The notes beneath the pieces were generated by a model. That model was not told where the DNA came from, did no database searches, and worked only from the letters and a program-made list of their open reading frames with translations. Of a stretch of DNA of 64,000 bases, positions 18,986 to 64,000 are shown piece after piece. Position numbers and translations under genes: made by a program. Positions within the stretch are counted from its first letter, which is position 1, and every line of letters starts with the position of its first letter. The DNA is from Alphaproteobacteria bacterium (GTDB lineage Bacteria; Pseudomonadota; Alphaproteobacteria; UBA9219): contig JAMFSS010000010.1 of the NCBI GenBank assembly GCA_026225415.1, positions 1,338 to 65,337 of the forward strand, written 5' to 3'.

Positions 18986-19510
18986 TTGAAATTCCCCGTA
19001 TTTTCAGGTGCATCCGTGATTGGGCTGTGGTCATACAAAACGAAAAAACACGCCAAACACCGTGGCTCTGTCGCCGTGGAAATGGCGATGATCGCGCCCG
19101 CGTTTTTTCTGTTGCTGATCGGCGTCACCGAAATGTGCCTGATGATCGGCGCGCAGCAATTATTGGAAAGCGCGACCTACAACACATCGCGCCTCGCCAA
19201 AACCGGCTACAGCGCCACCGGCCAGACACAGGCGCAAAGCGTCACGCAGATTCTGAACACCGAATTGCAAAGCTATGGCGCCCTGATCAACACCGCCAAT
19301 GTGACGATGACCGAAGCCGATTATAACAGTTTCAGCGCGGCGGCGGCGGGCGGCGGCACTTCGGGTTACGGCACCCAGCAACAGATTGTTGTGTACACCG
19401 TCACCTATCCGTGGAAACTTTTCACGCCGATCATGTCGACTCTTATCGGCACCAACGGCTTCTTTAACCTGAGTTCAAAGATCGTGGTCCGCAATGAACC
19501 TTTTGGGTAA
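18986..19510 (+). CDS. TadE-family pseudopilin
   Basis: Prepilin-like RG-SVAVEMAMIAPAFFLLLIG; C-terminal VVRNEPF. Confidence 0.88.
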   Translation: MKFPVFSGASVIGLWSYKTKKHAKHRGSVAVEMAMIAPAFFLLLIGVTEMCLMIGAQQLLESATYNTSRLAKTGYSATGQTQAQSVTQILNTELQSYGALINTANVTMTEADYNSFSAAAAGGGTSGYGTQQQIVVYTVTYPWKLFTPIMSTLIGTNGFFNLSSKIVVRNEPFG

Positions 19511-20066
19511 ATTTCGCCAACGTTTGTGGCAACGCACTCAGCGCGGCATCGCGGCGGTCGAATTCGCGCTGACGCTGCCGATATGGATTGCCATGCTGAT
19601 GGGGGTCGGCGACGGCAGTTATTATTTGCTGGTTAATGAAAAATGCGACCGCATCGCCTACAGCGTCACCGACATCGTCACGCAATATTCGACCATTACC
19701 AAAGCCAATCTGAATGACATTCTTTTGGCCACGAGCCAGTTGATGAACCCTTTTCCTTTCGGCGCGAATGGGGTTGTTGTCATATCATCCATTTTTCAAC
19801 CGTCGACCGGATCGCCGATTGTCGAATGGCAATATAGCGGCGGCGGCACCTTGGCGAGCCAATCAAGCAAAATCGGCAGCACCAACGGCAACGCCGTCCT
19901 GCCCAACGGGTTGACATTGAACGCCAATGACAATGTGATTATTTCCGAAGTCTATTATCATTTCACGCCTTTGTTTGTGAGCGAGAAGATTTTCAACAGC
20001 CAGACCATCTATAGGGTTGCCGTTTATAAACCGCGCCTCAGCCCGCTCGTCACGCCACCGACCTAG
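19494..20066 (+). CDS. TadE/TadF-family pseudopilin
   Basis: RG-IAAVEFALTLPIWIAML; VIISEVYYHFTPL..PR. Confidence 0.88.
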   Translation: MNLLGKFRQRLWQRTQRGIAAVEFALTLPIWIAMLMGVGDGSYYLLVNEKCDRIAYSVTDIVTQYSTITKANLNDILLATSQLMNPFPFGANGVVVISSIFQPSTGSPIVEWQYSGGGTLASQSSKIGSTNGNAVLPNGLTLNANDNVIISEVYYHFTPLFVSEKIFNSQTIYRVAVYKPRLSPLVTPPT

Positions 20067-20075
20067 GAGAGCAAG

Positions 20076-21641
20076 ATGTTCACCTTTTTATGCAAAAAAT
20101 TCCAACAGTTCCTGCGTTCGGAACGCGGGATGACTTTGCCGCTCACGGCCCTGTCGATGGTCGCCGCGGTTGTTTTATCGGGCATTGCGGTCGATACCGG
20201 CCGCGCCCAGATGGTGCAATCGAAACTGCAATTCTCGTTGGATGCGGCGGGGCTTGCCGCCGGTTCAACGGTCAGCACCTCCACGCTTAACACCGAAGTC
20301 GCCAAATATCTGAACGCCAATTTCAACGGCTATATGGGGTCGACCTTGACGGGATCTTCCGTGGTCGCCAACAGCGCCAATACGACTTTCACTTTGTCGG
20401 CCACGGCGACAGTGCCTTCAACCTTTATGGGCGTGGTGGGCGTAAACACCATTACCGTCACCGCCAATTCGCAAATCTCGCGCGCCGTGACAGGTTTGGA
20501 ATTGGTTATGGTGTTGGATAATACGGGATCGATGGCCGATTCGGCGGGCGGCAGCACCAGCAAAATTCAGGCCCTGCAAACCGCCGCCAATACGTTAGTC
20601 ACCACCTTGTTCGGCGGCGCGTCAACATCGACCAATGGCAAATTATGGGTGGGCATCGTGCCTTTTTCCCAGGCCGTCAATGTTGGCACCACGCACACCA
20701 CATGGATGAACACGACCTTTGACAACGCCATCAGCACGATGCCGGTGACGCAGGGCCCCGGTTGGGGCACGACCAGCTGGAGCGGTTGCGTGGATGCGCG
20801 CCAAAGCGGTTATGATGTGACGGATGATCCCCCCTCATCAAGCAACACCAACACGTTATTCGATACCTATTATTGGCCGAGCGATAACCTGACTTATGGC
20901 TCGCCTTACAACAACACGCCCAATGCCGCGTATAATGATTGGGCGACGCCGGTTTACAATAAATGCGTAACATCACGCGGCCATACGACTTGTTCGTCCA
21001 GCTCGTCCTGTACGGCCAACAGCTCTACAACATGCACCATCACGAGTTATACTTACCCGTCGAATATGGGTACAAGCACAGAGGGCCCTAATTTGCTGTG
21101 CCCGCAACAGGTCACGCCGATGACCAATTCCGCGACCACTTTGACCACCGCCATTAACGGCATGGTGGCGCAAGGCGATACCGTTATCAGCGAAGGCATG
21201 GCATGGGGTTGGCGCATGTTGTCGCCGCGCTGGCAGGGGCAATGGGGCGGCACGATGAACGCCAATAATCTGCCGCTGGCCTACAACACAACAGGCATGA
21301 TCAAGGCGCTGGTGTTGGTTACCGACGGTGAAAATACAATCGATAACACGGCGCATGGCGCTTATTGGTTTTTGGAAAATAACCGCGTTGGCTCTACAAA
21401 CAGTACAACTGCAGTAAGTGATATGGACAGCAAAACCCTGTCGATATGCACTGCGATGAAGGCGCAGGGGATTTACATTTACACGATCGGGCTTGGCACC
21501 GATGGCGGCATCAACACCGCCGAATTGCAGAGTTGCGCGACGGCGGTGAATTATGCCTTCACATCACCAACCACAACGCAGCTGTCGGGCATCTTTAGCG
21601 CGATTGGGGATTCATTATCGAATTTGCGGGTGAGCAAGTAA
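20076..21641 (+). CDS. TadG-like pilus protein with vWA domain
   Basis: ERG-MTLPL..GIAVDTGR..LDAAGLAA; MIDAS-like VLDNTGSM; GMAWGWRMLSP; LVTDGEN. Confidence 0.88.
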   Translation: MFTFLCKKFQQFLRSERGMTLPLTALSMVAAVVLSGIAVDTGRAQMVQSKLQFSLDAAGLAAGSTVSTSTLNTEVAKYLNANFNGYMGSTLTGSSVVANSANTTFTLSATATVPSTFMGVVGVNTITVTANSQISRAVTGLELVMVLDNTGSMADSAGGSTSKIQALQTAANTLVTTLFGGASTSTNGKLWVGIVPFSQAVNVGTTHTTWMNTTFDNAISTMPVTQGPGWGTTSWSGCVDARQSGYDVTDDPPSSSNTNTLFDTYYWPSDNLTYGSPYNNTPNAAYNDWATPVYNKCVTSRGHTTCSSSSSCTANSSTTCTITSYTYPSNMGTSTEGPNLLCPQQVTPMTNSATTLTTAINGMVAQGDTVISEGMAWGWRMLSPRWQGQWGGTMNANNLPLAYNTTGMIKALVLVTDGENTIDNTAHGAYWFLENNRVGSTNSTTAVSDMDSKTLSICTAMKAQGIYIYTIGLGTDGGINTAELQSCATAVNYAFTSPTTTQLSGIFSAIGDSLSNLRVSK

Positions 21642-39878: not shown

Positions 39879-40357
39879 GCCGCACCCGCCGCCGTCATGG
39901 TGCCAACGGCATCGCGTTGCGAGGCGTACAGCGCCATAAAATCAATCGGCTGAATGGCGACATTGGGGAACCCGCCTTCACGCACCGCATTGGAGATAAT
40001 CGCGCGGGCAAAGGGGAACAATAAACGCGGCGCTTCGATCAACAAAAACAGCTTGATCTGTTCTTCCGGCAAGGCAGGCAGAGAGAAAATACCGGCATAG
40101 GCCAGTTCGACAATAAACGCAGTGCGCGTGCCCAGTTTGGATTCCAGACGGATTTTCAACACGGCTTCAAAGGCATTCTCGCCGATGCCGCGCGACATCA
40201 CATTGACATCCATCGCCATTTGCGGTTGCGAGGACAGCTCGGCCAAAATCTGTGGCGCGTGCGGATTTTCAAACGACAAATCTTTGATATATTGCGCGCC
40301 GATTCCGATGGGGATGCTGGTCGGTTGGGCGGCTTGCGGGGTGGTGGATTCGGTCAT
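39875..40357 (-). CDS. secB: Protein-export chaperone SecB
   Basis: QYIKDLSFENP, EAPRLLFPFAR, GGFP..PIDFMALY. Confidence 0.96.
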   Translation of the reverse strand: MTESTTPQAAQPTSIPIGIGAQYIKDLSFENPHAPQILAELSSQPQMAMDVNVMSRGIGENAFEAVLKIRLESKLGTRTAFIVELAYAGIFSLPALPEEQIKLFLLIEAPRLLFPFARAIISNAVREGGFPNVAIQPIDFMALYASQRDAVGTMTAAGAA

Positions 40358-40435
40358 GCTGGCTCCTTAAAAAGACATTATTTCACTATCACGGAACAAT
40401 TTGCATCGCAACGCATGCTTTACTACTATTCGGCT

Positions 40436-41089
40436 ATGGACAATCTCAACATCCCCCTCGATATCATCGTTTATGCCGTCATCGCCGTATTACTGCTGGG
40501 GCGGTTATGGTTCGTTTTGGGCACGCGCAACGATAATGAAACGCAACGCCCCAATCCCTTTACCCCGCCCGCACCGCAACCGGTACCTACGCCAGATTCC
40601 AACGTCATTCCGCTGCGGCCGCAGCCTATCCTGCCGCCCGCATCCCTGGCCGGTGGCTTGGCGCAAGTCGCGGCGATTGACCCGAACTTTCAGGAAAAAC
40701 AATTTCTGCAAAAGGCGCGCGATATTTTCACGGTCGTGGTCGCCGCCTATGCCGCCAATAATATGGCCAGCATCAATGAATTTTTATCACCCGATCTGGC
40801 GGCGCATTTCCAGAAAATGGCCGATGCCCGCGCTTCGCAAGGCCAAACCGCGCAAAGCCGCGTGGCCGCCATAAGCGATGCCGAAGTGATTGCGGCGCGC
40901 GCAGAGAATGATGCGGCCTATGTCACGGTGCAGTTTGTCAGCAATCAGGAAAATATTTTACGCGACGCAGATGGCACGATTATTGGCGGCGCGGAAGGCC
41001 GGTTGGAACAGGTAACCGATATCTGGGTGTTTAGCCGCAATGCGCAAATGACCGAAGGCAAATGGATTGTGGTGGAAACGCGCGGTTAG
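40436..41089 (+). CDS. Tim44/TimA family protein
   Basis: TM N-terminus LGTR; DPNF..FL..A; VTVQFVSNQ; DIWVFSR..W; divergent from secB. Confidence 0.9.
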   Translation: MDNLNIPLDIIVYAVIAVLLLGRLWFVLGTRNDNETQRPNPFTPPAPQPVPTPDSNVIPLRPQPILPPASLAGGLAQVAAIDPNFQEKQFLQKARDIFTVVVAAYAANNMASINEFLSPDLAAHFQKMADARASQGQTAQSRVAAISDAEVIAARAENDAAYVTVQFVSNQENILRDADGTIIGGAEGRLEQVTDIWVFSRNAQMTEGKWIVVETRG

Positions 41090-56733: not shown

Positions 56734-57420
56734 TTACCGACCAAACCATAAACGCCACCGCGCCTTTGTTTCACCGCGCCCATACATCGCCGCATGAACC
56801 GCCGCGCTTGATGCCAGCATGGTCGCGGCCGCATAAATAACATCGCTGAAAAAATGGGCGCCCATAATGATGCGCGCCAAACCGAACGCGCAACCCGCAA
56901 TCATACCGCCCCAAAACACGCGGCGCGAACGCGGGCGCGGCGCGATATAGGCGAGGGTAGGCAGAAAAAACCCGAATGCACCGTCGCCCGAAACAAATGA
57001 CCCGTTGCTGTGGCCGCGTTCGAAATGCGGTTCTAATACCGGCGTAAATTTTGCCGTACCGCCGAATTCGGTCACTTCGCGTGGGCGGGCGCGGCCCCAA
57101 TGGTCTTTTAATCCGACATTGGCGATCAATACGGGGCCAATCAATAACGCCACTAACAAAAACAATCCTGCTTTGCCGTCAATGCCGCCGAACGGTTTGC
57201 GGCGGATATATCCCGCGACAGCCGCCAACGCGAACACAACACCCAACACACGCGCCCCGTCATAGGCCAACCAATGCAAAGTGACGCACAACACATTATC
57301 GGCCAGAAAAAATCCACCTTCATTGGCGCGGTAAAACAAACCGGACGCGATCACATCAATGCGCGGATTGATAACCGGCCAAACCAGCAATGCGGCGAAC
57401 AGAATAAAGAAAACGAACAT
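56734..57420 (-). CDS. Membrane PAP2 phosphatase (LpxF-like lipid phosphatase)
   Basis: KDHWGRARP, SFVSGD (usual SGH reads SGD), ARIIMGAHFFSDV; multiple TMs. Confidence 0.85.
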   Translation of the reverse strand: MFVFFILFAALLVWPVINPRIDVIASGLFYRANEGGFFLADNVLCVTLHWLAYDGARVLGVVFALAAVAGYIRRKPFGGIDGKAGLFLLVALLIGPVLIANVGLKDHWGRARPREVTEFGGTAKFTPVLEPHFERGHSNGSFVSGDGAFGFFLPTLAYIAPRPRSRRVFWGGMIAGCAFGLARIIMGAHFFSDVIYAAATMLASSAAVHAAMYGRGETKARWRLWFGR

Positions 57421-57444: not shown

Positions 57445-57478
57445 CCCCTCACCCAAACCCTTTCCCAAAGGGAGAGGG
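57445..57478 (-). repeat. REP-like element, same family as 56652-56686, opposite orientation
   Basis: Minus strand CCCTCTCCCTTTGGGAAAGGGTTTGGGTGAGGGG. Confidence 0.75.
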
Positions 57479-57655
57479 AACCCGCGCCCCGTCATTGGCC
57501 ATCCAATGCAAAGTGGCGAACAGCACATTATCCGCAAGAAAAAACCCGTCACCGGCGCGGTAAAACCAACCCGAAACAACAAAATCGACGCGTGGCCAAA
57601 AGACAGGCGCGGCCAGCAAGACTAAGCTGAGGATCGCAACCAGTATCACCAACAT
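57449..57655 (-). pseudogene. Truncated N-terminal paralog of the adjacent PAP2 gene
   Basis: PRVDFVVSGWFYRAGDGFFLADNVLFATLHWMANDGARV vs PRIDVIASGLFYRANEGGFFLADNVLCVTLHWLAYDGARV; similarity stops exactly at the REP element. Confidence 0.75.
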
Positions 57656-57820: not shown

Positions 57821-60214
57821 ATGCCACAAAAGCCTCACAATAATCGCTTCCTGAAAGCAGCCTTCCTCGCACTGGCGACAGCCTGCCTGCCCTTTCAGTC
57901 TATGGCGCAAATCGACAGCGAAAAACTGATCGGCTCAACCTGCGCCACGGCGGGGCAAAACGCCGCCGACTGGGATACATTCGCCGAATGCCCCAGCAAT
58001 GGCGGCACATGGACACGCGGCCCTATTTTTGTCGGCACAACATCCGATAGCTGCGACACCAATCATGGCGGCATGCTTTATTGGACGGGTACGGCTATGC
58101 AATATTGCAATGGCACAGCCTGGGGCACGTTCGGCATCAGCGCTTCCCCCAGCGTCTTCTCCAGCCTGACCGGCGCGACGGCGACCCACAGTTTCGATAA
58201 TGTCGCCTATGCGCAAGTGTGGGGCTGGAGCACGAATTTCACCACGCAAAACGCCTTCACTTTGTCGTCCACAAGTGAAACCACCGGCTCGCTCCTTACC
58301 ATAACCGCCGCCAACACGGCCGCGACGGGCCCGGTCGTGAATGTCAGCACCACCAGCACCGGCGGGGCGGTCGCCGTCAAAGCCGCCGCGACCGGAACCA
58401 ACAACACGGCGGCAGCCGGTTATTTCACGAATAACAACGCCACGGGCTATGGCGTTTTTTCATCAGGCGTATCGCCCAGTTATTTCGGCGGGAATATCAA
58501 CCTCGCCCCGGCGGCCTTTTATGACGTGGGAGGCAATAAATTCCTTAGCCTTGTCGGCGGCGACAGCTCCACGATTAGCATTGGCGCGGGTGCGGCGGGT
58601 TTGGTCAATACCGGCACAGGCGTCACCGCCATTGGCGGCAGTGCTTTGTTTGTTAATGGAGCCAATAACAATACCGGACTGGGCTTTGAGGCGGCGCCGA
58701 CTAATACCACGGGAACCCCCCTCACCGCGGCGGGCGAGGCGGCTCTTAACAGTACAACGGCCGGCCCCAATGACGGGCTTGGTTATAATGCTGGCTATAA
58801 CATCTCTACCGGCACCGGCAATGTCGCTTTCGGCAATGGCACCATAGCCACGGGCTCGGCGCAGGTGACGGGCAATAATAACTCGGCCATCGGCTATCTG
58901 GCGGGGGCGGTTCTTGCCGGCGCGGCAGCCAGCAACACGGCGATAGGCTATGAAGCACTCAAGGCAACCACGACGGGCAGCCAAAGCACCGCCGCGGGGT
59001 CCAACGCCCTGTTGGCTGCGACCGGCGCGAATGACGCCTTCGGCTATAATGCGGGCAAGGGCATTACCACCGGCACCAGCAATGTCGCGCTGGGCGAAAT
59101 CGCAATGGTCGGCGCATTGACCGGGGCCTATAACACGGCAGTCGGCTATGACGCGTTAAGCCCCACTGCCAGCACAGCCACCTCCAACACAGCCGTGGGG
59201 GCACAGGCGGGGTTCAAGATTTCTTCGGGCAGCTACAATACGGCTTTCGGGGAAAACACCCTTGCGGGCGAAACCACGGGAACCAGCAACACGGCTTTCG
59301 GCCAAAATACGCTTAGCGCCTCAACCGGAACATCGAATGAAAGTTTCGGCACCAACACCCTTTCCTCCGCAGTCACCAGCACTAATAATCTTGCTTTCGG
59401 CAATGCGACTCTTAACACGTTCGCGGCGGCAGGGGCCAATACCCATGTCGCCGTCGGCGCGGGCGCGCTTAACGCGGTGACGAGCGGATCAGGCCATACC
59501 GCCATCGGTTATCAGGCCGGTTCGGCAGGCTCAACCCCATTGACCGGCGGCGCGGCCTGCACCTTCATCGGCTTTCAGACGCAAACAAACGCCGCCTCTT
59601 ATACCAATGCCACCGCCATCGGCGCCGGGGCCATTCTGACGGCCTCGAATGCGATCGTGCTGGGCAATTCGTCGATTTCGGCCATTTACGCCAAGGTCAC
59701 TTCCATCACCGGCATTTCCGACCGGCGCCGGAAAAAAGATATTGCAGATTTGCCTGCCGATCTCGGCCTTGAATTTATCGGTAAATTAAAACCGGTTTCC
59801 TATCATTTCAATAATGGCGACGAAACCCAGCGTTACGGTTTTATCGCGCAGGATATGGAACAGGCCCTGCCGCCGCCGTTGCAAAATATTGTCGAAACCG
59901 CGCAACCGGAAAAGGGTTTGGCGTTGTTGTCGCGCGACACGACCAAAGACCGTTTTTATCACGTCGCCTATGGCGAATTGACCGCGCCCATCGTCAAAGC
60001 CATTCAGGAACAGCAAAGCCAGATTAAAAATGACCGCGCCTATATGGCGCAAGTGAATACGCAAAACCCATCGCGCCAGTTACAGTATCTCGGCGACAGC
60101 CTGGACAATACCGGCACCATCCAATCCGCCCTTCTCGCAGGCGGCGCTTTCGCCAGCCTGTGTCTGGCCTTCTTTCTGACGCGACGCAAGAAACAGGGGC
60201 CGCCGCATGAATAA
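57821..60214 (+). CDS. Secreted fibre/adhesin-like protein with Peptidase_S74 chaperone and C-terminal TM anchor (copy 1)
   Basis: Signal peptide; Cys-paired N-module; NTAxGxxAL repeats; ISDRRRKKDI..LKPVSY..GFIAQD..VAYGEL..VKAIQEQ; LLAGGAFASLCLAFFL-TRRKK. Confidence 0.85.
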   Translation: MPQKPHNNRFLKAAFLALATACLPFQSMAQIDSEKLIGSTCATAGQNAADWDTFAECPSNGGTWTRGPIFVGTTSDSCDTNHGGMLYWTGTAMQYCNGTAWGTFGISASPSVFSSLTGATATHSFDNVAYAQVWGWSTNFTTQNAFTLSSTSETTGSLLTITAANTAATGPVVNVSTTSTGGAVAVKAAATGTNNTAAAGYFTNNNATGYGVFSSGVSPSYFGGNINLAPAAFYDVGGNKFLSLVGGDSSTISIGAGAAGLVNTGTGVTAIGGSALFVNGANNNTGLGFEAAPTNTTGTPLTAAGEAALNSTTAGPNDGLGYNAGYNISTGTGNVAFGNGTIATGSAQVTGNNNSAIGYLAGAVLAGAAASNTAIGYEALKATTTGSQSTAAGSNALLAATGANDAFGYNAGKGITTGTSNVALGEIAMVGALTGAYNTAVGYDALSPTASTATSNTAVGAQAGFKISSGSYNTAFGENTLAGETTGTSNTAFGQNTLSASTGTSNESFGTNTLSSAVTSTNNLAFGNATLNTFAAAGANTHVAVGAGALNAVTSGSGHTAIGYQAGSAGSTPLTGGAACTFIGFQTQTNAASYTNATAIGAGAILTASNAIVLGNSSISAIYAKVTSITGISDRRRKKDIADLPADLGLEFIGKLKPVSYHFNNGDETQRYGFIAQDMEQALPPPLQNIVETAQPEKGLALLSRDTTKDRFYHVAYGELTAPIVKAIQEQQSQIKNDRAYMAQVNTQNPSRQLQYLGDSLDNTGTIQSALLAGGAFASLCLAFFLTRRKKQGPPHE

Positions 60215-62636
60215 AAAACTTGTCCTCGCTTTCCTGTTTTCCGGCCTGTCCCTGCCCGCCTTCGCCGCGGTCGCCGTCGATCATGAACAGCTTATTGCCG
60301 GAACCGGTTGCCCCGCCACCGGGCAAAATGCCGGCGATTGGGATGCCTTCGCCGAATGTCCCAGCGCCAGCGGCACCTGGGCGCGCGGCCCTTTGTTTGT
60401 CGGCAGCACATCCGACAGCTGCGACAGCAGCCATGCCGGCATGGTGCAGTGGACGGGCAGCCTTATAGAATATTGCAATGGCGGCGCCTGGGTTTCCTAT
60501 GGCAGCAGCGGCGCCAGCGTCGCCTTGTCGGGCTTAACGGCGGCGACCGCAGGCCTGACCATCGATAACGGAACAACGGGCGCCTATCCGCAAACCTGGA
60601 CATGGAACAGCCTGACCACGCAAAACGCCTTCACCCTGTCATCGACATCGATGACCAGCGGATCGATACTCGCGGTAACGGGCGCCAATACCGCCCTTAC
60701 CGGCAATGTCCTGAATGTCACCACCGCCAGCACCGGAAAGGCGTCGGCCATCAACGCAACCGTCAGCGGCGCCAGCAATACAGGCAGCGCCGGTTATTTC
60801 ACCAATGCCAGCACGTCGGGCTACAGCATCTATGCGCCCGGCACATCACCGAATTATTTTGGCGGCAATGTCACCATCGCCAGCGGCAAGACTTATCAGA
60901 TCGGTGGCAATATCGTTTTCTCAGACCCCAAAAGCGATACAAACAGCGTCGCAGCAGGTTTGGGCGCGGGCATTTCGCAAACCGGAAGCAGTTCGGACAC
61001 TTATGCGGGATATAACGCGGGCACATCGGTGACCACGGCATCAAACGTCGTTGCCATCGGCGCCAATTCGCTTCACAGCCTTGTCTCTGGCGCTAATTGC
61101 GTGGCCATCGGCGCATCCGCTTTTTATTCCGATGCGAGCACATGTCCCATTACCGGTTTGGGTTATCAGGCCGGCTATTATGTGGTGGCCGCCGACAATA
61201 CGGCGATGGGCTATCAGGCGATGAAGAGCGTCAGCGGATCGGGCGTGTCGGTAACAACAGATACGGCGGTGGGCAATTCCGCCTATTTTGCAGCCAATAC
61301 CACCGCCGCCAATAACACCGCCGTCGGCTATAAAAGCCTTTATTCCACGACCAGTGCGACTCCTATAGATACCACCGCCGTGGGGGATCAGGCGCTTAAT
61401 GGCGTGACCACCGGCTCCCTCAATTCCGCCCTGGGCTATCAAGCGGGGCTGCATATCACGACGGGCGGCAATAATCTTATGATAGGTTATCAGGCCATGC
61501 AGGGCAGCGCGGGATCCCCTCTCACAGGAACGGCAAATGTCGCTGTCGGCTATCAGGCTCTTTTTTCCGGGCAAGCGGGGTTAGCGAACTCGACCGCTGT
61601 CGGCTATCAGGCGGCTTATTCGGATACGAATTTCAGCGACCAGGCCGCCATGGGTTATCAGGCGCTTTACTCGAACAACGGCGTTACTTTCAATTCCGCC
61701 TTCGGCTATCAGGCGCTTTATAATTCAACGGCATCCGGCAGCACCGACGAAGCCTTTGGTTATCAGGCCGCCTATAATGTCACGACGGCCGCCAATAACG
61801 AGGCCTTTGGTTATCAGGCCCTGATGGGCAGCAGCACTTCGACGCCGCCGGCTTCGCAGAATATTGCCATCGGCTATCAGGCGCTGGCCTCGGATCAGGC
61901 GCAGGGAAACACCGCCGTAGGTTATCAGGCCGGCTATGCGGGCACAGCCAACACAAACGGCTCTAATAACACTTTCATCGGTTATCAGGCGCAGGCCAAT
62001 GGGGCGGGCTACACCAACGGCACCGCCATCGGCAGCAGCGCCATTTTGACCGCATCGAATTCGATCGTTTTAGGCAATTCCTCCATCACGAAGATATACA
62101 GTGAGGTCACATCCATCACCGCCATTTCCGACCGGCGTTTAAAAACAGGCATTAGCGATTTATCCGACGATCTCGGCCTGACATTCATCGACAAACTCCG
62201 CCCTGTCTCCTATCGCTTCAAGGATGGCGACGAGACGCAACGTCACGGTATTATCGCGCAGGAGCTGGAACAGGCTTTGCCGCAGCCCTTGCAAAATACC
62301 GTCGAGACAGCGCAACATGAGCACGGGCTCGCGCTTATCGAACGGCAGAATGATAAAGACCGCACCTATCGCGTCGCCTATGGCGAATTGATAGCCCCCC
62401 TTGTCAAGGCTGTGCAAACGCAACAAACGCAGATAGCGGCCAACCATGACGCGATCGCGCATCTGGCGTCCCCCGACACGGCGCGCGCCGATGAAATCCG
62501 GGATATAGAAACGCGCCTTCATAGTCTGCGCCTGCATCTGTTGCTCTTCCCCCTCCTTGCGGGCGGCATCAGCCTGTGCCTCGGTTTTTTTCTGGCCCAT
62601 CGCAAAAAAAGGGTTCAGGAAAAGGTGGGCCTATGA
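60207..62636 (+). CDS. Secreted fibre/adhesin-like protein with Peptidase_S74 chaperone and C-terminal TM anchor (copy 2)
   Basis: Same architecture; many AxGYQA repeats; ISDRRLKTGI..GIIAQE; LLLFPLLAGGISLCLGFFL-AHRKKR; start overlaps the copy 1 stop. Confidence 0.85.
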   Translation: MNKKLVLAFLFSGLSLPAFAAVAVDHEQLIAGTGCPATGQNAGDWDAFAECPSASGTWARGPLFVGSTSDSCDSSHAGMVQWTGSLIEYCNGGAWVSYGSSGASVALSGLTAATAGLTIDNGTTGAYPQTWTWNSLTTQNAFTLSSTSMTSGSILAVTGANTALTGNVLNVTTASTGKASAINATVSGASNTGSAGYFTNASTSGYSIYAPGTSPNYFGGNVTIASGKTYQIGGNIVFSDPKSDTNSVAAGLGAGISQTGSSSDTYAGYNAGTSVTTASNVVAIGANSLHSLVSGANCVAIGASAFYSDASTCPITGLGYQAGYYVVAADNTAMGYQAMKSVSGSGVSVTTDTAVGNSAYFAANTTAANNTAVGYKSLYSTTSATPIDTTAVGDQALNGVTTGSLNSALGYQAGLHITTGGNNLMIGYQAMQGSAGSPLTGTANVAVGYQALFSGQAGLANSTAVGYQAAYSDTNFSDQAAMGYQALYSNNGVTFNSAFGYQALYNSTASGSTDEAFGYQAAYNVTTAANNEAFGYQALMGSSTSTPPASQNIAIGYQALASDQAQGNTAVGYQAGYAGTANTNGSNNTFIGYQAQANGAGYTNGTAIGSSAILTASNSIVLGNSSITKIYSEVTSITAISDRRLKTGISDLSDDLGLTFIDKLRPVSYRFKDGDETQRHGIIAQELEQALPQPLQNTVETAQHEHGLALIERQNDKDRTYRVAYGELIAPLVKAVQTQQTQIAANHDAIAHLASPDTARADEIRDIETRLHSLRLHLLLFPLLAGGISLCLGFFLAHRKKRVQEKVGL

Positions 62637-64000
62637 AAAAAAATCGCCTCTCCGCCCTCGTTTTTGCGCTTGCCCTTTGCGGTTCGTTCCTGCCCAGCGC
62701 CGCCAACGCCCTTGTCGCGGTCGATCATGAACAGCTTGTCGCCGGAACCGGTTGCCCCACCCTTGGGCAAAGCGCCGCCGATTGGGACACATTCGCCCAA
62801 TGCCCCAGCACCAGCGGCACCTGGGCGCGCGGCCCCGCTTTTCTGGGCGCGACCAGCGACACCTGCGACGCCAACCATGCCGGTATGCTACAATTTAACG
62901 GGGGTCTGCTTTATTGCAGCGGCTCCGCCTGGGTCACGCTTGGCGGTGGCGGCACAGAAGCGCTCTCCAGCCTCACGGCCTCCCTCGCCAATAACAGCAT
63001 CGACAGCGCCAATTTCGCCCAGACATGGACATGGAATACGCTATCGACCGGAACCGCGCTAACTTTGACATCCTCCACTGACACAAGCGGAACCGTCTTC
63101 ACGCTTTCCAACACTAACGGATCGGGAACCGGCGCGGTTTTGAAAATCAGCACCACCAGCACCGGCGCCGCCAACGCCATTCAGGGCGCGGTGTCGGGCA
63201 TCAGCAACACGGGCACCGCCGGTTATTTCTCCAATTCCAGCCCGACAGGCTGGGGCATTTATGCGTCGGGCACTTCGCCAAATTCCTTCGCCGGCATTAT
63301 CAATGTCGCGCTGGGTTACGGCTATCAGGTCAATGGCGGCAATGTCCTGACGCTTCCCGACAGCGACACCACCAGCCTCGCGATGGGCAGCAGCGCCCTG
63401 GCCGCGCAATCCGCCACAAGTTTGAACAATACGGCGCTTGGCAATGCGGCGCTTTTTTCCGCGACCAACATTTCCAACAACACAGCCGCCGGTTATCAGG
63501 CTGCCTATTCCCTCAACGCCAACGGCAATACGACCGCCGTCGGCGCGCAGGCTTTATACAGCGCGACGGCGGGCCCCAATGACGCCTTCGGCTATCAGGC
63601 CGCCATGTATGTGGGCAGCGGCATCAACAATGCCGCGTTTGGCGCGCAGGCCATGCTGGGCGTCAGCGGCAATCTGGTGACCGGCAATGAAAACACCGCC
63701 GCGGGCTATCAGTCGCTTTATGCCATTCAGGGCGCGGCGACCGGCAACACGGCGGTAGGGGCGCAAGCGCTTTACAGCTCGACCACCGGAAGTTACAGCA
63801 CCGCCGTCGGCGCGCAGGCTTTATACAACGCCACCGCAAGCCCCAACGACGCTTTTGGCTATCGCTCGGGCTATATGATCACGACAGGTACCGCGAATGT
63901 CGGCGCCGGCGCCTTTAGCGTGGGCGGCACCAGCGCATCCAATCTGACCGGCAACGGCAATACCGGCATCGGTTATGCGGCGCTTGCCAATGTCAGCGGC
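62633..64000 (+). CDS. Third fibre/adhesin-like paralog, runs off the window end (absent from the ORF track)
   Basis: ATG 62633 (ATGA overlap with copy 2): MKKNRLSALVFALALCGSFLPSAANALVAVDHEQLVAGTGCPTLGQSAADWDTFAQCPSTSGTWARGP..., followed by NTAxG repeats. Confidence 0.85.
   Translation, partial: MKKNRLSALVFALALCGSFLPSAANALVAVDHEQLVAGTGCPTLGQSAADWDTFAQCPSTSGTWARGPAFLGATSDTCDANHAGMLQFNGGLLYCSGSAWVTLGGGGTEALSSLTASLANNSIDSANFAQTWTWNTLSTGTALTLTSSTDTSGTVFTLSNTNGSGTGAVLKISTTSTGAANAIQGAVSGISNTGTAGYFSNSSPTGWGIYASGTSPNSFAGIINVALGYGYQVNGGNVLTLPDSDTTSLAMGSSALAAQSATSLNNTALGNAALFSATNISNNTAAGYQAAYSLNANGNTTAVGAQALYSATAGPNDAFGYQAAMYVGSGINNAAFGAQAMLGVSGNLVTGNENTAAGYQSLYAIQGAATGNTAVGAQALYSSTTGSYSTAVGAQALYNATASPNDAFGYRSGYMITTGTANVGAGAFSVGGTSASNLTGNGNTGIGYAALANVSG

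Follow-up and report, generated by a model that had tools for sequence, protein, structure and literature searches.

The stretch of DNA analyzed here, hereafter called the window, comprises 64,000 nucleotides (positions 1338–65337 of contig C2 in genome G000, a 2.02-Mb assembly of 11 contigs) and ends within an array of three successive same-strand open reading frames (ORFs), F1, F2, and F3, that begins at position 57821. We interpret this array as a chromosomal, nonphage operon of three paralogous trimeric fiber proteins, which are probably made as type-I membrane-anchored precursors, and assign this interpretation a probability of roughly 0.6. The domain architecture of F1–F3, their nonphage context, the conservation of their features, and a trimer model of F2 that passes its controls are observed results. 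F1–F3 belong with the known fibers capped by a Peptidase_S74 (S74) domain, among them the MAT-like fibers, and the new part is their ending, in which S74 is followed by a predicted transmembrane (TM) anchor. Judged from sequence and models, this ending appears real, widespread in the order, and mechanistically suggestive.

Three Overlapping Genes with a Common Domain Order

All three genes lie on the plus strand. F1 (57821–60214; 797 amino acids, aa) and F2 (60207–62636; 809 aa) overlap by 8 nt and F2 and F3 by 4 nt, the ATG of F3 being placed on the TGA of F2 (ATGA), and both start–stop overlaps fit translational coupling. The signal-bearing ATG of F3 is at 62633 (MKKNRL...); the first 455 of its 798 aa fall inside the window (62633–64000), and extension along the contig places its end at C2:66366, 1,029 nt beyond. 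In the paralog alignment, the proteins are 45–51% identical in pairwise comparison over their full length. A first-pass annotation of the window had claimed at least three translationally coupled paralogs and advised reading past position 64000 for further copies. The extended contig bears out the claim and gives a copy number of three, the next gene being a convergent and different S74 fiber gene lacking a TM segment, F4, after which the contig ends. The tandem unit measures ~2.4 kb, and the duplications are old since its conserved ends are just 62–78% identical in DNA. A promoter scan of the array found 3 promoter-like sites against a shuffle mean of 5.2, and a terminator scan was uninformative. 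The GC content is 0.58–0.61 in the array, 0.57–0.58 in the other fiber genes, 0.53–0.58 in the neighbors, and 0.525 in the genome, giving no clear foreign signal.

At the start of each protein, a basic n-region leads into a hydrophobic core and then an AXA-type site (SMA/Q, AFA/A, and ANA/L in F1, F2, and F3, respectively). Read from the sequence, this Sec-type leader spans residues 1–29 in F1 (57821–57907) and residues 1–20 in F2 (60207–60266). It is followed by a conserved N-module, covering residues 30–230 in F1 (57908–58510), whose four cysteines (Cys41, Cys57, Cys78, and Cys96 in F1) align across the three proteins within the first ~100 residues. The middle is a long Gly/Ala/Thr/Asn-rich run of divergent NTAxGYQAL-type repeats (58511–59620 in F1). 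The sole Pfam family found in each protein is Peptidase_S74 (PF13884), with E values of 2.4e-13, 3.5e-13, and 7.8e-15 and scores of 50.6, 50.0, and 55.3 bits (cut-off 22) for F1, F2, and F3. The S74 core covers residues 633–684 in F1 (Ser633...Lys638; 59717–59872) and residues 641–693 in F2 (Ser641...Lys646; 62127–62285), and the catalytic motifs read SDRRRK in F1 (Ser at nt 59717) and SDRRLK in F2 (Ser at nt 62127) and in F3 (Ser634, outside the window). The Ser, Asp, and Lys of this SDxxxK motif are invariant in an alignment of 35 sequences, in which they are numbered S81, D82, and K86. Among PHROG families, tail spike, tail fiber, and virion structural families match via the repeats and S74 (E down to 2.8e-47), and NCBIfam gave 0 families for F1–F3 at E up to 0.01.

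A linker of ~100 residues connects S74 to a C-terminal hydrophobic helix, which begins 136–138 residues after the catalytic Ser in F1–F3 and 84–85 residues after the end of the Pfam match. The 19-residue hydrophobic windows have Kyte–Doolittle (KD) means of 1.8–2.3 and are followed by the basic tails RRKK in F1, HRKKR in F2, and RRKN in F3. The predicted helix comprises residues 769–787 in F1 (KD 1.88; 60125–60211 with its tail) and residues 778–797 in F2 (KD 2.32, also helical in the structure model below; 62538–62633 with the full tail HRKKRVQEK), whereas the S74 domain, linker, putative TM helix, and tail of F3 lie past the window at C2:65869–66366 on the same strand. Identity among the three proteins is 45–75% in the N-module (residues 31–110), 25–58% in the middle, 58–82% in S74, and 8–40% in the linker and TM part. 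All three elements of the ending (helix, hydrophobic stretch, and basic tail) persist at that low identity, so that its physical character is conserved and its sequence is not. The first-pass annotation had described signal peptides, a Cys-bearing N-module, and NTAxGYQAL repeats, together with an intact Ser..Lys site and a TM helix with a basic tail after S74. All of the first three features are present in F1–F3, the catalytic Ser codons of F1 and F2 lie exactly where it had put them, in S74 domains now confirmed by Pfam, and all three proteins have the TM-like helix and its basic tail. The checks advised in that annotation, as far as they lend themselves to computation, all turned out as it had predicted.

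Predicted Structure of the F2 C Terminus

An AlphaFold2 (AF2) model of F2 residues 561–809, computed with 35 aligned relatives, reached a mean pLDDT of 82, with values above 90 for the S74 blocks and two long helices. The helices occupy residues 726–754 and 758–806, and the latter is a single helix (pLDDT >90) that includes the hydrophobic segment. Homotrimer modeling, recommended in the first-pass annotation, gave this region an ipSAE of 0.90 (0.89–0.90 in three runs) in comparison with 0.00 for the best control, with at least 92% of contacts in common among the runs and a partner pLDDT of at least 84. In the calibration of such models, the mark is reached by 20 of 30 solved pairs and by 1 of 23 single chains, and the pass of F2 may partly reflect likeness to, or memory of, solved S74 trimers. 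The interface residues are spaced 3–4 apart over model residues 172–222, that is F2 residues 732–782 (62400–62552, plus strand). In the AF2 and homotrimer models, this segment is a predicted heptad coiled coil, which begins at the last S74 helix and continues into the first part of the TM helix, and its contacts reach beyond the region that the fold comparison aligned to solved S74 chains.

A profile search of the PDB with the F2 C terminus matched phage proteins of the S74/intramolecular-chaperone type (6f45, E 1.6e-4; 3gud, E 2.3e-3), a single-sequence search gave only a weak match to a T5-like tail fiber (E 0.077), and neither search reached MYRF. When the model was compared using Foldseek, the MyRF ICA domain 7dc3 came first (E 3.7e-3, probability 1.00), followed by 3gud and 3gw6, all with E >1e-3. 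VIA-align of the S74 part gave Z scores of 6.2 for 3gw6, 4.8 for 3gud, 4.8 for 4uw8, and 4.5 for 7dc3, all below 8, and the last F2 repeats aligned to SadA (Z 6.1), UspA1 (4.4), YadA (4.2), and BoaA (4.2). A feature search of the ESM Atlas with the N-module returned viral hypothetical proteins with scores of at most 0.85, which is a lead at most.

Distribution of the S74–TM Ending

The first-pass annotation had also called for a survey of S74 domains followed by a TM helix outside prophages, and the ending proved to extend wider than that annotation could see. We scored the TM-type ending as a hydrophobic helix with an R/K tail after S74. Of 71 genomes of the order, including G000 and the unpublished G053, 67 have PF13884; when G053 is left out, the count is 66 of 70. 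Outside these two genomes, we fetched 140 S74 places, of which 132 contained the motif, all with complete genes, and 8 had no motif by pattern. The S74–TM ending was present in 21 of the 132 genes, each in a different genome among the 69 others in the order. In the best 80 IMG/VR loci, 77 relatives had the motif and 75 of these were complete, and the ending was found in none of the 75 (0/75). The length after the catalytic Ser is 85–152 residues in these viral-contig relatives, with one of 227, and 165–169 residues in F1–F3. The tested records of cultured phages match the S74 core alone, at 39–43% identity and at most 64% query coverage.

In a word-indexed search with the F2 C terminus, the ending was seen in P0002, P0003, P0005, P0008, P0030, and P0041/42, most relatives ending in a coiled coil. 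A search with the N-module found it in P0054, P0055, and P0068, and 6 of the 16 hits besides the query had neither PF13884 nor any other Pfam domain. When the 150 best representatives of clusters at 50% identity, a set with many fragments, were scored, 10 had the ending by our rule and 11 when counting P0008, which the rule missed owing to a second SDxxxK-like string. The 59 loci from the genome_contigs set contained 38 S74-motif ORFs in 31 loci, 37 of them with complete C termini, and 2 of the 37 had the ending. These two S74–TM genes, both with housekeeping neighbors, were found at L008, in a metagenome-assembled genome (MAG) labeled uncultured Pseudobdellovibrionaceae, and at L009, in a MAG labeled Micavibrio aeruginosavorus. 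TM-type P0030 (L008:8948–12292), P0041, P0082, and P0097 start with a conserved hydrophobic N terminus (…RGNIF[LF]x[LI][FL]GAVA[LM]VG…) in place of the AXA leader, and before cleavage these proteins may have an anchor at each end.

Some TM-type genes are in very long frames, of 9,801 aa in G032, 5,647 aa in G022, 2,556 aa in G044, 2,473 aa in G021, and 2,076 aa in G026. These giant frames (G032:C1 at ~609–637 kb, G022:C10, G044:C3, G021:C1, and G026:C19) are built of the same repeats as the array, and since they end in S74, TM helix, and basic tail, giant fibers use the same ending. A FastTree phylogeny of the S74 core (111 columns, 337 rows) was poorly resolved, such that gains are not separable from losses. 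On this tree, the TM ending required 13 changes in comparison with 35–41 in 200 shuffles, and at least 4 changes were forced by supported branches; the ending is thus clustered but not of a single origin or loss. The full-text literature that we searched contained no report of a bacterial S74 domain followed by a TM helix, the search not extending to Supplementary Tables 3 and 4 of PMC10769870 on MAT-like proteins of other bacteria, which may bear on the point. The accessible sections of the Micavibrio genome paper and of the giant-gene preprint make no mention of S74 fibers. The arrangement appears undescribed in bacteria and yet common in this order.

Comparison with Known S74 Systems

The accepted view of S74 chaperone domains is that they help phage fibers to fold in the cytoplasm, and the one membrane-linked use of S74 known to us is eukaryotic MYRF. 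The phage domains of endoNF (3gw6), GA-1 (3gud), T5 pb1 (4uw8), and S16 gp37 (6f45) share the Pfam family and the Ser–Lys dyad with F1–F3 but fold in the cytoplasm and have neither leader nor TM helix. MYRF has its S74/ICA domain directly N-terminal of a single TM helix, as have F1–F3, so that trimerization-dependent self-cleavage frees an N-terminal trimer. It differs in that its cargo and ICA domain are cytosolic, whereas the cargo and S74 domain of F1–F3 would be periplasmic according to the leader and the positive-inside tail; furthermore, F1–F3 have no Ndt80-type DNA-binding domain, PF13884 being their only Pfam match, and no luminal C-terminal domain. Of the MYRF-like topology proposed in the first-pass annotation, the position of S74 just before the TM helix and the logic of release are indeed shared, but the orientation is the mirror image, F1–F3 being predicted type-I proteins.

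The closest bacterial parallel described is the S74 subgroup of the MAT (mosaic adhesive trimer) proteins of Bdellovibrio bacteriovorus, which are likewise nonphage, chromosomal, and multiparalog and come from a bacterium of a predatory lineage (Caulton et al. 2024; accessible text of PMC10769870). The same text reports for the Bdellovibrio MAT proteins a signal peptide, a conserved N-domain, a trimeric fiber, S74 self-cleavage (shown with an S782A mutant), and a surface location. The order of parts in MAT proteins as described there agrees with that read in F1–F3, namely signal peptide, conserved N-domain, long and, in our case, predicted trimeric beta-helical fiber, and C-terminal S74 with SDxxxK, and in both groups some relatives with the N-module carry a different tip in place of S74 (6 of 16 hits in our search). 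The likeness of the two N-modules is one of position and sharing pattern. The difference is in the ending: the word "transmembrane" is absent from the main text of PMC10769870, and the chaperone fragment of Bd3182 is given there as 140 residues (782–922), in comparison with 165–169 residues including the coiled coil and putative TM helix in F1–F3. The accessible text of PMC10769870 leaves the surface attachment of MAT fibers unidentified.

A Possible Route of Fiber Assembly

The leader and the four conserved cysteines of F1–F3 argue for export. By the positive-inside rule, a C-terminal hydrophobic helix followed by a basic tail is a stop-transfer anchor, and the combination of leader and basic C-terminal tail indicates a type-I precursor, in which the fiber, S74, and coiled coil would be periplasmic and the tail cytoplasmic. 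From this we infer a path of export, anchoring, autocleavage, release, and quality control that would lead to surface display and adhesion. The Sec leader would take the fiber chain into the periplasm, and the hydrophobic helix with its R/K tail would stop the transfer and anchor the chain in the inner membrane, with the S74 chaperone domain held ~50 coiled-coil residues above it. Confined to two dimensions, three tethered chains would next come together in register, the tether serving to concentrate and register the chains after Sec export, unlike a soluble periplasmic S74 domain. S74 would nucleate the trimer, the beta-helical fiber would fold from its C-terminal end, and the Ser–Lys dyad (Ser633, Ser641, or Ser634) would cut the chain after trimerization. 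A mature fiber of ~600–620 residues would be freed with a new C-terminal tip, and a stub of ~165–169 residues, consisting of S74, coiled coil, and TM helix, would be left in the membrane. Nucleation of the trimer from the C-terminal end by S74 with subsequent Ser cleavage is established for endoNF, T5 pb1, and Bd3182, according to the accessible text of PMC10769870. In F1–F3, the Cys-paired N-module would likely be the cell-proximal attachment end and the divergent middles would provide three binding specificities. An outer-membrane route similar to that of type II secretion or of type IV pili is no more than a reasonable guess, given that G000 has four secretin genes and one S74 protein with a prepilin signal.

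A broader proposal, which we hold tentatively and consider possible but rather doubtful, is that the S74–coiled coil–TM unit is a dedicated self-excising anchor. It would represent an unrecognized assembly route of extracytoplasmic trimeric fibers, in which release waits until the chains have trimerized, sending the N terminus outward to an outer-membrane conduit and used for Micavibrio-like fibers from ~800 to ~9,800 aa. Among prokaryotic systems it would come closest to the ICA–TM release switch of MYRF, which might conceivably derive from it. If true, an anchor that removes itself would answer in part how S74-capped fibers, such as those of Bdellovibrio, assemble after Sec export from chains that are dilute and unfolded. 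The bacterial S74–TM form should then be weighed in the discussion of the origin of MYRF, and membrane-anchored S74 fibers would offer a simple test system for S74 release. The ending also marks a large and easily recognized set of candidate prey- or host-recognition fibers in a small-genome, Micavibrio-like order.

Alternative Explanations

Several observations weigh against F1–F3 being type-I membrane-anchored precursors. The basis of the leader and TM calls is hydropathy, charge pattern, and the helix in the AF2 model, and the C-terminal hydrophobic segments are moderate (KD 1.8–2.3) and Gly/Ala/Ser-rich. Modeling of the C terminus covered F2 (561–809), the F1 linker, which includes Pro and Gly, may have a less regular structure, and the AF2 model of the N-module was poor, with a mean pLDDT of 63. 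No gene for an export partner or outer-membrane conduit was found in the locus as read to the contig end, the 20 same-genus genomes searched contained no full-length homolog of F2, and G000 encodes an exosortase, a homolog of EpsH at C1:36799–37536 (E 1.3e-61). Because this last gene exists, the most serious rival is a sortase-type sorting signal: the C-terminal helix and basic tail would be a PEP-CTERM, GlyGly-CTERM, or LPXTG-type signal removed by a dedicated membrane protease or transpeptidase, which would decide the fate of the fiber. A helix with a terminal R/K cluster is the layout of known sorting signals, and F1–F3 show it at their extreme C terminus. However, the sequence before the helix is unconserved and contains no PEP, GG, or LPXTG-like motif, and NCBIfam, which includes models of -CTERM sorting domains, gave 0 families for the three proteins. 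The exosortase gene is on a different contig, and with an intact self-cleaving S74 domain immediately before the helix, there would be no need for a second protease. We consider such a signal quite unlikely. It is also unlikely that the anchor is permanent or regulated, that is, that S74 cleavage is slow or conditional or that the cut fiber stays bound to its stub, leaving the fibers rooted in the inner membrane or kept as a pool for release upon a trigger such as prey contact. In favor of such an anchor, the stalk in the F2 trimer model is predicted to be long and continuous with the TM helix, and cleavage of MYRF can be inhibited by its partner TMEM98 (accessible text of PMC7153906). The catalytic Ser and Lys of the 35 aligned sequences are nevertheless invariant, no partner gene is present at the locus, and cleavage directly follows trimerization in the studied S74 proteins, as described for Bd3182 in the accessible text of PMC10769870.

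Two further explanations concern the nature of the fibers themselves. As S74 is best known from phages and the PHROG tail and virion families match with E down to 2.8e-47, F1–F3 might be tail fibers of a prophage, tailocin, or gene-transfer agent whose hydrophobic ends are incidental. We regard this as highly improbable. Families for phage structural, packaging, lysis, and integration functions were absent from 46 larger ORFs of the window and the 8 nearest neighbors of the array, and the first-pass annotation's statement that no phage genes are nearby holds for the 57 kb upstream and for the downstream side to the contig end, which contain no prophage. In addition, F1–F3 have Sec leaders, the tested phage records reach no more than 64% query coverage, at 39–43% identity, the TM ending was seen in 0 of 75 viral-contig relatives, and S74 is found in 67 of the 71 genomes from this order, with housekeeping neighbors at each S74 locus inspected. 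That F1–F3 are trimeric autotransporter adhesins, the JGI name for several relatives, is scarcely credible: the last F2 repeats do align to YadA-like heads and stalks (Z 6.1 for SadA, 4.4 for UspA1, and 4.2 for both YadA and BoaA), but Pfam finds PF13884 alone and no YadA-anchor beta-barrel, and the C terminus is modeled as an alpha-helical TM segment and not a barrel. Both explanations fail their defining tests, there being no phage module at the locus and no YadA-anchor domain.

Genomic Context and Congeneric Loci

The eight genes directly upstream of the array encode DUF3501, a CCG/4Fe-4S protein, rubrerythrin, Fur, TerB-DnaJ, Amidase_2, PAP2, and a PAP2 fragment. Among the 46 larger ORFs elsewhere in the window are genes for ATP synthase, RND efflux, AccA, TadE, ThyX, ClpB, FliL/FliM, and His biosynthesis; these 46 and the eight neighbors are without exception housekeeping genes or unassigned. 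The PAP2 fragment (57449–57655, minus strand) is the 68-aa N-terminal part of a PAP2 paralog; it has no Pfam match, but its translation resembles that of the intact PAP2 gene (56734–57420), to which it is linked by a 68-nt direct repeat of 87% identity. Located at the exact upstream edge of the array, the fragment is a probable insertion or duplication scar and marks the upstream junction.

The lack of a full-length F2 homolog in the 20 same-genus genomes indicates that the array is accessory, the amidase gene being present in 19 of the 20. We examined eight congener loci. In G003, the order Rbr-Fur-DjlA-amidase-PAP2 is directly followed by a convergent F4-like S74 gene, with nothing like F1–F3 between them. 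In G005, the genes Fur-DjlA-amidase-PAP2 precede a 684-aa gene partially similar to F4, behind which comes a convergent F4-like S74 gene, again with no F1–F3-like gene between, and the other six loci have a different neighborhood. From the two loci that lack the array, F1–F3 are an insertion beside a convergent fourth S74 fiber gene. In G013:C94 and G017:C167, of the same genus, a TM-type S74 gene lies ~1–3 kb from the amidase gene, and the amidase/PAP2 locus may be a hot spot for fiber genes of the genus, with TM and non-TM variants.

Contig C2 ends 2.8 kb past F3, and the context on the far side was read to that point. F4 extends from C2:66576 to the contig end at 69138, is convergent to the array, and has an S74 domain and a coiled-coil C terminus without a hydrophobic end; its N terminus is cut by the contig end. 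It contains an internal duplication of ~1.34 kb (C2:66576–69138; L090:10126–11870), 80–86% identical over detected segments of 113 and 300 nt, that repeats a '...GMLRYNSTSTPTVEAYVNGAWASLGGGG' module. The last 371 nt of C2 (68768–69138) are 96% identical to C5:175869–176239, within the repeats of a giant gene, which shows that the assembly breaks in fiber repeats. Contig C5 has two giant repeat genes without a Pfam match, at 164686–176685 (4,000 aa) and 177301–186636 (3,112+ aa, running off the contig end). The second of these may have F4 as its C-terminal, S74-bearing part.

The S74 matches in G000 total seven, and all three outside C2 sit among housekeeping genes. Two of these proteins consist of a leader and S74, with lengths of 297 aa on contig C6 and 229 aa on contig C9. 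The third, of 491 aa (C9:51222–52697; L089:3222–4694), joins a prepilin N-methylation motif (PF07963, RGFTLIELAIV...) to a C-terminal Peptidase_S74 domain. The same combination occurs in the metagenomic P0034, P0039, P0043, and P0044, three of which are on one 29.8-kb contig, and S74 open frames of 445–560 aa in many genomes of the order may be prepilin–S74 genes. Such a protein could be a trimeric fiber borne by a pilus tip or a pseudopilin. On C6, near-identical short ORFs (MAVGTDFFMGFLYQ...) at 133468–133761 and 138212–138472 flank a methyltransferase gene, a gene for a 769-aa leader-bearing protein, and the gene for the 297-aa S74 protein; the block is a possible repeat-bounded island.

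Organism and Other Features of the Window

The adenylosuccinate synthase encoded on C9 is 76–89% identical to proteins of MAGs labeled Alphaproteobacteria or Bdellovibrionales, and the closest named relatives are MAGs labeled Micavibrio and Pseudobdellovibrionaceae. NCBI places Micavibrio in Bdellovibrionales/Pseudobdellovibrionaceae, the giant-gene preprint, in its accessible part, calls it an alphaproteobacterium, and the accessible part of the Micavibrio genome paper describes an epibiotic predator with a genome of 2.48 Mb and 54.7% GC. G000 is an uncultured, small-genome relative of the Micavibrio lineage. The epibiotic, predatory, or host-attached lifestyle suggested in the first-pass annotation fits these nearest named relatives, with predation itself being plausible.

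Elsewhere in the window, two TadE-like genes and a VWA-domain gene at 18986–21638 form a Tad-pilus minor-pilin set. Members of eukaryote-named families are also found in this bacterial chromosome, a GPP34 (Golgi phosphoprotein 3) family gene at 116–790 and a gene with a Tim44-like domain at 40220–41086.

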